A DNA stretch of 10,447 nt, from IMG/VR virus record IMGVR_UViG_3300032516_006146, positions 1 through 10,447 of that record, one strand, 5' to 3'. Position numbers and translations under genes: made by a program. Below are positions 8,521-10,447 of this stretch, piece by piece; the stretch's first letter is position 1, and the number at the start of each line of letters is the position of its first letter. Source of the DNA: a virus. Below the pieces are notes generated by a model. That model searched no databases. It saw only the letters and a program-made list of their open reading frames with translations, and was not told the DNA's origin.

Positions 8521-9204
8521 TTATTCCTCAATTCCGGTAGCAGTAATAATATGTTCTTTATCGTTTTGGTGGTTTGCTTCATTTTCGGCAAGTTCTGCTG
8601 CCAACGCTTGATCAGCTTGTGCGTCACGTTGGGTATTTTCTTCTGGACTACCAACAATAGCTATACTATTGTCCTGAGTATCTCCAGTGGCTTCCTCTGC
8701 AGCAGAAGATATATTTTTGGCATCTTCTTGAGCAAAAAATTGATCTGCTGATTGGGCAAAATTTTCAAGTTTGGTAGCAGCATCGTCCTTAAGTTTATTA
8801 ATTAAATTAGGATCTTGGCGTTTGACCTCAGCAAGTTTTTTATGCATATAACTACGCATTTTCCTGCGTCTTTCATGATTTATTTTTAAACTTGATTGTG
8901 CTATAACATTATCATGAGCATGTTGCTGTGGTGATCTTTTTCTATATAAACAATGACATGGTACAGGAGCACCGGTAGCAAGATCCTTACCAATATATCC
9001 CCTACCATAACATTTATTACATCCCTTACTTGGATCACTAATTTCCATATTGTGTTTTTTTGCCAAAGCCTTAATAATATCCATGGGAGTTACGTCTTCC
9101 GGTTTTACTACCTCGCCCTTATGTACGTCAACAAGGACTTCTTTAGATTCCGGTAGATCGTATACTTCCTCAAATATCTTCTTCTTTGGTTGTTCTTCAG
9201 TCAT
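8521..9204 (-). CDS. Hypothetical protein with a Zn-ribbon-like motif (CNKCYGRG...PCHC), a basic central helical region and an acidic C-terminal tail
   Basis: Tightly coupled to gp44 (TAA-TT-ATG). AAGGA Shine-Dalgarno site. Sits between the gp45 and gp44 homologs, which are adjacent in T4 itself. No family recognised. Confidence 0.45.
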   Translation of the reverse strand: MTEEQPKKKIFEEVYDLPESKEVLVDVHKGEVVKPEDVTPMDIIKALAKKHNMEISDPSKGCNKCYGRGYIGKDLATGAPVPCHCLYRKRSPQQHAHDNVIAQSSLKINHERRRKMRSYMHKKLAEVKRQDPNLINKLKDDAATKLENFAQSADQFFAQEDAKNISSAAEEATGDTQDNSIAIVGSPEENTQRDAQADQALAAELAENEANHQNDKEHIITATGIEE

Positions 9205-9212
9205 TTTTATCC

Positions 9213-9692
9213 TTAATTTCTGTTATCGATTTCTGTTTCTTTTTCTTCCAATTCAATAGCAGTATTTCTTAATATCATTTCTAACTGATCTGATATATTA
9301 AATCTTTTCTTGTTAATGGTTATACTTTTTGTAATGTTTCCATCATTATGTCGTTTTGTGGCTGCAAGCCAATCACACATCATTTCAACAATATCAAATA
9401 AATCCATACAACTTATTTGGTTTTCTGTCGGTACATTAAAAAATTCTGGATGATGTCGGTTATGATCATAATGATGAACTAATGCTGGTTTCATATCGGT
9501 AAGGAATTGTTGATATTCAGGACTGCCGTAAGTACATCCTTTTAATAAAGGAGTAAATTTTTCAAATACAGAAGCTTCAGGCTCTTTAAGTTTAGATGCA
9601 TCATGTTCATGTGCTCTATGAAGTAATTCAGTTGAAAAAATTTGCAAGTATTTTGCTACTCGCATTATGTGTTTTCTTGTTTCAGCTTCCAT
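9213..9692 (-). CDS. Putative HD-domain metal-dependent phosphohydrolase, 159 aa
   Basis: H...HD motif: KHIMRVAKYLQIFSTELLHRAHEHDASKLKEPE, giving the His...His-Asp...Glu pattern of YfbR-like HD hydrolases. Additional His cluster HHYDHNRHHPE and a downstream Asp/Glu-containing segment (DLFDIVEMMCD). Confidence 0.45.
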   Translation of the reverse strand: MEAETRKHIMRVAKYLQIFSTELLHRAHEHDASKLKEPEASVFEKFTPLLKGCTYGSPEYQQFLTDMKPALVHHYDHNRHHPEFFNVPTENQISCMDLFDIVEMMCDWLAATKRHNDGNITKSITINKKRFNISDQLEMILRNTAIELEEKETEIDNRN

Positions 9693-9714
9693 ATTATTCC
9701 AATTAAAAAATTAA

Positions 9715-9802
9715 GGTGTTGGCCGGTGGGGTTTCAAGCCGCGGCCGCGGATCCCATCCTCCGTACACACTGCTATGCAGCGTTTCTTTTCTTACCAACA
9801 CC
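9715..9802 (-). other. GC-rich 88-bp palindromic structured element bounded by 8-bp inverted repeats, between gp45 and the HD protein, followed by a U-tract on the transcribed strand
   Basis: ggtgttgg (9715..9722) and ccaacacc (9795..9802) are exact reverse complements. Inside lie the 12-bp perfect palindrome ccgcggccgcgg (SacII/NotI overlapping), an adjacent ggatcc (BamHI) site and the hairpin ctgc-tat-gcag. On the minus strand the element is followed by TTAATTTTTTAATT. Local GC is far above the surrounding DNA. Confidence 0.4.
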
Positions 9803-9878
9803 AGACTTATCATGTTATTGATCTACACCGATCTCCGACCAAGTGCGGTTGTGTGTCACGCTATATAACACGAATAAG

Positions 9879-10447
9879 TTATTCTGCTTTTTCAGTTTTC
9901 CTGATTCTTCCGCTTACGGCAAAAAATTTCATATCATCCTTTTGCCATTCAAGGAAGATAAAACCGGAATTTACCAAACTGATACGATAATCAGAAACAT
10001 CAGGCATCCTGCTTATGACTTCGGACCGGATAATAAAATCAAAGGTGTCTGTGTTTTCGGCAATTTTTTCCGGTGTGTATGTTTTCTTAAAACTATTATC
10101 ATGTGCCGAATTGAAGAGCTTTAGAGCGATCTGATTTGATGTTTTGTTGAATTTGATTTCTATGTATTCGGCTTTTACCAGATTGCTCATTTTTGATATT
10201 TCGGTAAGATCCTTCACACTAAGAATAAATGTAACATTCGGATCTTTACGGGCAATACTTGTTGGTATTTTTGGCATTGCGGCAGGATTGGTAAGAACGT
10301 AATTGATTTCGCTGTTTTGATTAGATATCACCATACTGTTTTCTGCTTGTGTAAGTGATATTGATTCAAAAGCATTTATAAACTGATGAAATTCGGAGAA
10401 ATCACGAAAATTAATATCTGTTCCTTCAAAATCAAAGAATGTTGCCG
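9879..10447 (-). CDS. Sliding clamp (T4 gp45-like), N-terminus beyond the window end
   Basis: The C-terminal region TDTFDFIIRSEVISRMPDVSDYRISLVNSGFIFLEWQKDDMKFFAVSG aligns with T4 gp45 ENTFNFIINMANMKMQPGNYKLLLWAKGKQGAAKFEGEHANYVVA (from memory). The minus-strand frame upstream of the Met at 10334 stays open to the window edge (...FDFEGTDINFRDFSEFHQFINAFESISLTQAENSMVIS...). The real start is therefore off-window. Confidence 0.7.
   Translation of the reverse strand, partial: ATFFDFEGTDINFRDFSEFHQFINAFESISLTQAENSMVISNQNSEINYVLTNPAAMPKIPTSIARKDPNVTFILSVKDLTEISKMSNLVKAEYIEIKFNKTSNQIALKLFNSAHDNSFKKTYTPEKIAENTDTFDFIIRSEVISRMPDVSDYRISLVNSGFIFLEWQKDDMKFFAVSGRIRKTEKAE

Follow-up and report, generated by a model that had tools for sequence, protein, structure and literature searches.

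The stretch of DNA analysed here (hereafter the window; 10,447 nt in full) derives from an AT-rich (35% GC) T4-like phage that is known from metagenomes alone. All genes of the window are carried by the minus strand. In the direction of transcription, the gene for a gp45-like sliding clamp is followed by a 186-nt spacer, a DUF5662 (HD-like) gene, a 227-aa gene, the gene for the clamp-loader large subunit (PHROG 168, E 1.4e-78) and a 97-aa gene. The clamp gene, the TAA stop codon of which lies at 9881..9879, extends past the end of the window; the full-length clamp (241 aa) is found on a contig from ENA (L001 1996-2721). Spacings among the genes from DUF5662 onward are 8, 2 and 9 nt. An earlier note on this DNA had placed the spacer between gp45 and an HD gene, and the profile matches agree with it: the clamp ends at 9879 and the DUF5662 (HD-like) gene starts at 9692. 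The spacer comprises two modules, termed A and B, and a T-rich tail. These parts and the features within them are as follows.

9879..10447, minus strand: 3' part of the gp45-like sliding clamp gene (PHROG 223, 'DNA polymerase processivity factor', E 2.5e-13).
9693..9878, minus strand: whole intergenic spacer, 186 nt, non-coding; one gap in the alignment with a relative, its final 8 nt being the ribosome-binding site.
9803..9878, minus strand: module A, 76 nt, 42% GC, closed by an imperfect inverted repeat of about 13 bp (CTTATTCGTGTTAT / ATAACATGATAAG).
9715..9802, minus strand: module B, the GC-rich core, 88 nt, 59% GC, with a three-branch fold on the mRNA strand (P1, P2 and P3).
9715-9722 and 9795-9802: perfect 8-bp inverted repeat (GGTGTTGG / CCAACACC), arms 72 nt apart, delimiting an 88-nt unit.
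9794..9802, minus strand: 5' strand of P1, GGUGUUGGU on the mRNA, pairing with 9715-9723.
9767..9783, minus strand: hairpin P2, ACGCUGC-AUA-GCAGUGU, 7 bp with a 3-nt loop, pair probabilities 0.93-0.99.
9739..9750, no strand assigned: perfect 12-bp palindrome CCGCGGCCGCGG, which caps P3, a poorly defined GC-rich arm.
9715..9723, minus strand: 3' strand of P1, GCCAACACC on the mRNA, with the U-tract at the next base.
9705..9714, minus strand: T-tract TTAATTTTTT, the U-rich UUAAUUUUUU on the mRNA, directly 3' of P1 and of the 88-nt unit.
9703-9813, minus strand: 36-codon open reading frame MISLVLVRKETLHSSVYGGWDPRPRLETPPANTLIF, which spans module B and stops within the T-tract.
9693..9700, minus strand: ribosome-binding region of the DUF5662 gene, GGAATAAT; the motif GGA(A)TAAT-ATG precedes five other genes of the window.
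9213..9692, minus strand: DUF5662 (HD-like) gene, downstream of the insert (Pfam PF18907, E 1.3e-35).

What had been reported of the letters of the spacer is borne out. The 8-bp terminal inverted repeats do bound 88 nt, the 12-bp palindrome is perfect, the hairpin ctgc-tat-gcag is present at 9770-9780, and the tract on the transcribed strand is TTAATTTTTT at 9714..9705 of the minus (coding) strand. The overlap of restriction sites is also as reported: within the palindrome lie one NotI and two SacII sites, and a BamHI site (GGATCC, 9749-9754) overlaps it, all of them inside 16 bp. On the mRNA, P1 is followed by UUAAUUUUUU, then by AAUU and then by the ribosome-binding site and start codon, GGAAUAAU-AUG.

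Two other genes of the window were examined in passing. An 815-aa protein encoded at 4046-6493 (minus strand) contains major-vault-protein (MVP) domains (Pfam MVP_shoulder, E 9.7e-22; Vault_3, E 6.7e-10; and Band_7); phage MVP homologues are the subject of one report, on human-gut phages (bioRxiv 10.1101/2023.11.10.566534). An HNH/homing-endonuclease-like gene at 2253-3212 (minus strand; PHROG 559, E 6e-63) contains three repeat units of about 171 nt each at 2586-3197 (65-78% identity among them), and on the ENA contig a paralogue precedes the dUTPase gene (L001 1-837).

The most informative property of the spacer, overlooked in the earlier note, is that it is an insertion, lacking in every syntenic relative. 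Three diverged relatives (85%, 83% and 59% identity) were retrieved with the full-length clamp as query, and one more contig was reached via DUF5662. Three of these contigs are syntenic with the window (clamp 85% and 83% identical where measured). The first, L004 (JGI 3300051400), carries dUTPase, clamp and DUF5662 genes with a clamp-DUF5662 gap of 5 nt; the other two, both from JGI 3300075153, have the same gene order and a gap of 6 nt each, and one of them goes on with a 228-aa gene, the clamp loader and a 97-aa gene, in the order seen in the window. When L004 is aligned with the window, the whole spacer forms a single gap that runs from the clamp stop codon to the start and ribosome-binding site of DUF5662, and the DUF5662 protein, 74% identical to its L004 orthologue, has the same N-terminus. 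Because the spacer measures 186 nt in the window against 5-6 nt in the syntenic relatives, the entire interval 9693-9878 is a lineage-specific insertion. The unit of insertion is the full spacer (module A, module B and the T-rich tail) and not the 88-bp core alone. The gain of about 180 nt is placed in the lineage of the window, since one gain is simpler than three losses. Further relatives reached via DUF5662 have proteins at most 68% identical in non-syntenic contexts and were uninformative.

The junction at which the insert lies varies in another way. In L005, the relative with a clamp of 59% identity, a homologue of the 227-aa gene (44% identity) begins 9 nt past the clamp (L005 729-2108, against window 8521-10447); DUF5662 is missing there and is therefore itself accessory at this junction. 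The insert likewise marks the 3' junction of the clamp gene as an indel hotspot within this phage group. The hexamer GAATAA occurs as a direct repeat on both sides of the insert (9884-9879 and 9699-9694), to which we give little weight because it belongs to the common ribosome-binding motif listed above.

SacII, NotI and BamHI sites crowded into 16 bp had raised the suspicion of a cloning-vector, linker or assembly artefact, which we now consider very unlikely. Two public contigs encode the DUF5662 protein, one from ENA (ERZ27248201 k141_1497331, 12.6 kb) and one from Logan (SRR9616645, 3.7 kb), and the spacer is base-for-base the same in both. Window and Logan contig agree fully (100% identity over 3,683 nt). 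Between window and ENA contig there is one SNP (T/C), at 10380 in the clamp gene, which shows that these two records are not plain copies of each other. The presence of an unchanged spacer in contigs of two public sources makes an assembly artefact unlikely, and the phage genes continue on both sides, intact and collinear with those of the relatives. The linker-like appearance is moreover limited to about 16 of the 186 inserted bases. Common polylinkers are not known to share more than the 10-mer GCGGCCGCGG with the insert.

Searches for a source or a relative of the insert gave chance matches or none. BLAST against 50,697 phage records and 72,556 plasmid records returned no match, the latter result again arguing against a vector origin. 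Exact-word scans of IMG/VR viral contigs gave two loci (L006 and L029), both interpreted as chance matches: that in L029 sits inside a coding sequence, and that in L006 (IMGVR_UViG_3300031867_000318), a 22-nt identity to the P2 hairpin located between the repeats of a locus resembling a diversity-generating retroelement, is probably due to chance. A 20-mer scanned against JGI metagenomes matched 17 times, each time in an unrelated GC-rich contig with dissimilar flanks, and two scans of GTDB genomes gave no hit in one case and two hits in the other, both inside coding sequences. For the most part, the hits of the collection scans fell within genes of GC-rich organisms. All these collection scans used exact 18-25-mers, which diverged copies could escape. 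The L006 locus itself contains, at the 3' end of a 627-aa gene, two repeats of about 98 nt (9400-9497 and 9622-9719) that differ almost only at adenines of the downstream copy, as expected for the VR/TR pair of a diversity-generating retroelement.

Recurrence elsewhere in the genome, also raised in the earlier note, was checked on the 12.6-kb contig, where the insert is single-copy and shares chance-level words only with the remaining sequence. An origin by duplication within this contig was considered for module A, which resembles the clamp 5' leader (ACACACAA...TCGGAGAT), and was rejected as not significant (P ~0.10). In the collections searched, the insert thus appears as a single-copy orphan for which neither a donor nor a relative was found.

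The search of Rfam with Infernal proposed earlier did not assign the element to a known RNA family: no hit overlapped 9693-9878 at E up to 10, and over the whole window at E up to 1 the only hit was a tRNA-Met located elsewhere. This tRNA-Met (CAT; 6708-6780, minus strand) begins 1 nt past the stop codon of a 93-aa open reading frame. A tRNA or tRNA-like structure, suggested by the 88-nt unit and its closing stem of 7-8 bp, was rejected on the negative results of ARAGORN and Rfam and on manual inspection, which revealed no T-arm or D-arm on either strand. The 36-aa open reading frame was likewise rejected as a conserved micro-ORF, since it matched only five unrelated repeat proteins, in multiple weak stretches, among 1.84 billion representatives. 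Inspection by eye for a mimic of a CRISPR repeat, a hammerhead or similar motifs gave nothing in support.

How far the features of the spacer exceed chance depends on the background chosen. Against the window as a whole, the element stands out: the GC-richest 60-mer falls within it (67%, against a mean of 35% with an s.d. of 8.6%), CCGCGGCCGCGG is the sole all-GC palindrome of at least 10 bp, and the palindrome, with at most two mismatches allowed, was seen in 0 of 200 window shuffles. Against the spacer's own composition, each feature taken singly is weak: of its dinucleotide shuffles, 15% contained an inverted repeat of 8 bp or longer, and 4% a palindrome of 12 bp or longer. A perfect inverted repeat of 8 bp or longer that is followed at once by 10 nt with at least eight T is found at one coding-strand site in the window, that is, at the element; window shuffles gave a mean of 0.06 such sites, and none of 300 shuffles had one with a GC-rich arm, these criteria having been set post hoc, after the element was known. 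What is unusual is therefore the GC island together with a perfect GC-rich stem that abuts a coding-strand T-tract; the inverted repeat and the palindrome on their own are not striking.

We next describe the predicted fold of the minus-strand transcript, which the earlier note had proposed to compute. On the coding strand, the 88-mer has a minimum free energy of -32.9 kcal/mol (z -2.0), and the whole spacer a z-score of -1.2; these single-sequence z-scores are modest, and that of module A (-0.7) is not significant. The helices P1 and P2 are robust. In a fold that includes 60 nt of flank upstream and 40 nt downstream, their pair probabilities are 0.93-0.995, and all 9 bp of P1 have a probability of 0.956-0.995. 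P1 and P2 are connected by an A-rich joining strand. P3 is ill-defined, and the centroid fold places a 4-bp stem and a tetraloop at the palindrome. The interior closed by P1 measures 70-72 nt and contains two inner arms.

This fold bears on the view of the spacer as a large composite intrinsic terminator or structured RNA, put forward in the earlier note, which holds up best among the readings offered there. As in an intrinsic terminator, a GC-rich stem (P1) is followed on the transcribed strand by a U-rich tract, UUAAUUUUUU, which begins at the next base; the closing helix is robust, its orientation is that of transcription and it lies after a stop codon. The branched interior of 72 nt is atypical, however, P1 lacking the short loop (about 3-8 nt) of a compact hairpin. 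A consensus terminator scan did not call the element, which is explained by the loop limit of the scan (3-8 nt). A similar layout is found elsewhere in this phage. At 3981-4018 (minus strand), after the vault-protein-like gene and before the ribosome-binding site of the next gene, a canonical terminator-like GC-rich hairpin of about 16 bp is followed by UUUU and GGGAUAAU-AUG (fold z -3.0).

The phage also has a promoter-like motif of its own, TTGACA-N17-TTTTTTAT(T), which is conserved on the coding strand in two intergenic regions and for which 0.02 chance matches are expected per window. Its occurrences are as follows.

Window 6651-6681, minus strand: TTGACA-N17-TTTTTTAT, upstream of the vault-protein-like gene.
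L001 1940-1970 and L004 1410-1440: TTGACA-N17-TTTTTTAT, upstream of the clamp gene and conserved in L004, the clamp of which is 85% identical.

The motif is absent from the insert, and a consensus promoter scan of 9693-9878 gave no promoter-like site. The best candidate found manually in the spacer, TTGAAA-N18-TAATTT, agrees at 8 of 12 positions and lies under the threshold of the scan. Only 22 nt separate P1 from the ATG. Without a promoter in the insert, a strong stop would cut off transcription of the essential clamp-loader gene, so that the element should be either leaky or functionless; and since three relatives live without it, it must be dispensable.

The best-supported reading, which we hold tentatively, is that the spacer is a predicted intercistronic terminator or attenuator with a 3' structure, acquired by insertion. 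It is the most economical because the same layout is used at the phage's own 3981-4018 site. In one phage lineage, a single-copy non-coding segment of about 180 nt entered the otherwise tight 3' junction of the clamp gene. As transcription leaves the clamp gene, the RNA of the insert would fold in stages, P2 forming first, then the GC-rich arm that contains the palindrome and finally the 9-bp P1, which would close the branched structure right before UUAAUUUUUU. Such a structure could act as a partial intrinsic terminator (an attenuator) and also protect the 3' end of the clamp mRNA, and would lower transcription into the DUF5662, 227-aa, clamp-loader and 97-aa genes. The GGAAUAAU-AUG at the 3' end of the insert would allow DUF5662 to be translated independently, its close coupling to the clamp having been lost. 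The insertion, its single-copy orphan character, the thermodynamic stability of P1 and P2, their orientation, the neighbouring U-tract and the ribosome-binding site are shown by the sequence comparisons and folds; that termination or attenuation actually takes place, and that the insert has been kept for this reason, is what we infer. The model assigns no role to the 76 nt of module A.

Somewhat less probable, though a serious competitor, is a neutral scar: foreign or rearranged DNA captured at this hotspot junction by illegitimate or microhomology-mediated recombination, with no selected function. Such an insert would be tolerated as non-coding DNA in which a ribosome-binding site is retained, and several of the findings above accord with this, namely its absence from all syntenic relatives, the variability of the junction (L005 having no DUF5662 between the clamp and the 227-aa-gene homologue), the inverted repeat and palindrome that each lie within chance for the composition of the spacer, the weak fold z-scores and the lack of conservation in the collections searched. 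The flanking GAATAA repeat could represent the recombination microhomology, but its membership of a common ribosome-binding motif makes it weak evidence. A neutral origin must also account for a GC-rich closing stem placed beside a U-tract in the right orientation, which is rare by chance, and for a patch of 59-67% GC in a phage of 35% GC, which should decay unless it is recent or selected; nor was a donor sequence found. Functional structure of another kind is unlikely: the insert would be a regulatory or small RNA, either an sRNA derived from the 3'UTR and sharing the terminator, or a leader that regulates DUF5662 in cis, in which the three-way junction itself is functional. Structural RNAs typically stand out as GC islands when the genome is AT-rich (the tRNA-Met of this phage is an example), P1, P2 and their A-rich joining strand would suit such a role, and many sRNAs end in a U-tract as the element does. 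Against it stand the absence of an Rfam match at E up to 10, the absence from the insert of any promoter-like site, including the conserved motif of the phage, and the poor definition of P3; as no homologue turned up in the collections searched, the insert offers no covariation or conservation to examine. Quite unlikely, too, are two bolder variants, in which the insert would be a recent functional RNA module that rewires the replication operon (a 3'UTR-derived sRNA, or a three-way-junction attenuator responsive to a ligand or protein), or else the first copy to be seen of an unrecognized family of miniature GC-rich mobile cassettes in AT-rich T4-like phages, with other copies in the unsequenced remainder of the genome.

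The remaining explanations place the function, or the mobility, in the DNA. We regard as improbable that the palindrome CCGCGGCCGCGG is a site for a dimeric protein (bound by a regulator, serving as an endonuclease target, or as an origin-associated site beside an AT-rich tract). The all-GC palindrome is unique in the window and was not reproduced in window shuffles, and HNH endonuclease genes lie nearby in the phage; yet it is a lone site with no repeated half-sites elsewhere, a palindrome of its length arises in some shuffles of the spacer itself, as given above, and no binding protein could be identified. A miniature mobile element (MITE- or REP-like), consisting of the 88-bp core or of the whole insert and proposed for the core in the earlier note, is highly improbable and largely refuted. 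The presence/absence polymorphism among relatives, the inverted repeats at the ends of the core and the weak complementarity of the ends of the whole insert (TTATTC / GAATAA) are what invites it. By definition, MITEs have terminal inverted repeats no shorter than 10-15 bp, are flanked by a target-site duplication of 2-10 bp and occur in multiple copies (Nadal-Molero et al. 2024, PMC11602168), and the element departs from this definition on all three counts. Its repeat has 8 bp and is within chance; the core is flanked by ...ATTAA and AGACT... (plus strand), with no direct repeat or target-site duplication; and there is no second copy in the 12.6-kb contig, the hits among viral contigs, JGI metagenomes and GTDB genomes all being chance matches with unrelated flanks. 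The core is, furthermore, not the unit that was inserted, which is the 186-nt spacer.

If the attenuator reading is right, the locus would provide a natural example of a T4-like phage that has retuned the ratio of clamp to clamp-loader transcripts, by means of a cassette of structure, U-tract and ribosome-binding site dropped into a tight gene junction of 5-6 nt. The general significance is limited, given that the element is a lone orphan and shows no conservation. The insert is a real if fairly ordinary one-off feature, the most likely role of which would be that of a transcription stop or attenuator.

The insert can be compared with several known systems. With prokaryotic and viral MITEs and REP-like palindromic elements it shares being small, non-coding, intergenic, bounded by inverted repeats and polymorphic in presence or absence, whereas it is single-copy and its relatives were found in no collection searched. 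The GC clusters of yeast mitochondria are, like the insert, short GC-rich palindromic insertions in AT-rich intergenic DNA that are polymorphic among strains; they form multi-copy families, in contrast to the single orphan copy in this phage. Closer in setting are the promoter-early stem-loops (PeSLs), composite terminator/promoter cassettes of T4-type phages (Arbiol et al. 2010, PMC2839356; Comeau et al. 2014, PMC4122927), which recur as conserved sequences and carry a sigma-70-like early promoter after the stem-loop and ahead of the Shine-Dalgarno sequence (PMC4122927). The insert is likewise a small non-coding intergenic stem-loop cassette that ends in a Shine-Dalgarno sequence and start codon, and it likewise lies at an indel between close relatives. 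It differs in having no promoter between stem-loop and Shine-Dalgarno sequence (22 nt from P1 to the ATG) and in not being repeated within the 12.6-kb contig, and an identity with PeSLs was rejected on these two points. From the intrinsic (Rho-independent) terminators and the intercistronic attenuator or stabilizer hairpins of T4-like phages the insert differs in that P1 closes a branched interior of 72 nt, where theirs is a loop of 3-8 nt, in that it sits inside an operon that is tightly packed in the relatives and in that its function is a predicted one. With them it has in common a GC-rich helix that directly precedes a coding-strand U-rich tract, and a place just after a stop codon and before a ribosome-binding site; the phage's own site at 3981-4018 is a canonical example. 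The element is thus real and lineage-specific, and the features of this single copy, with their predicted function, fit a familiar kind, the regulatory stem-loop/U-tract cassette located between genes at an indel of T4-like phages.
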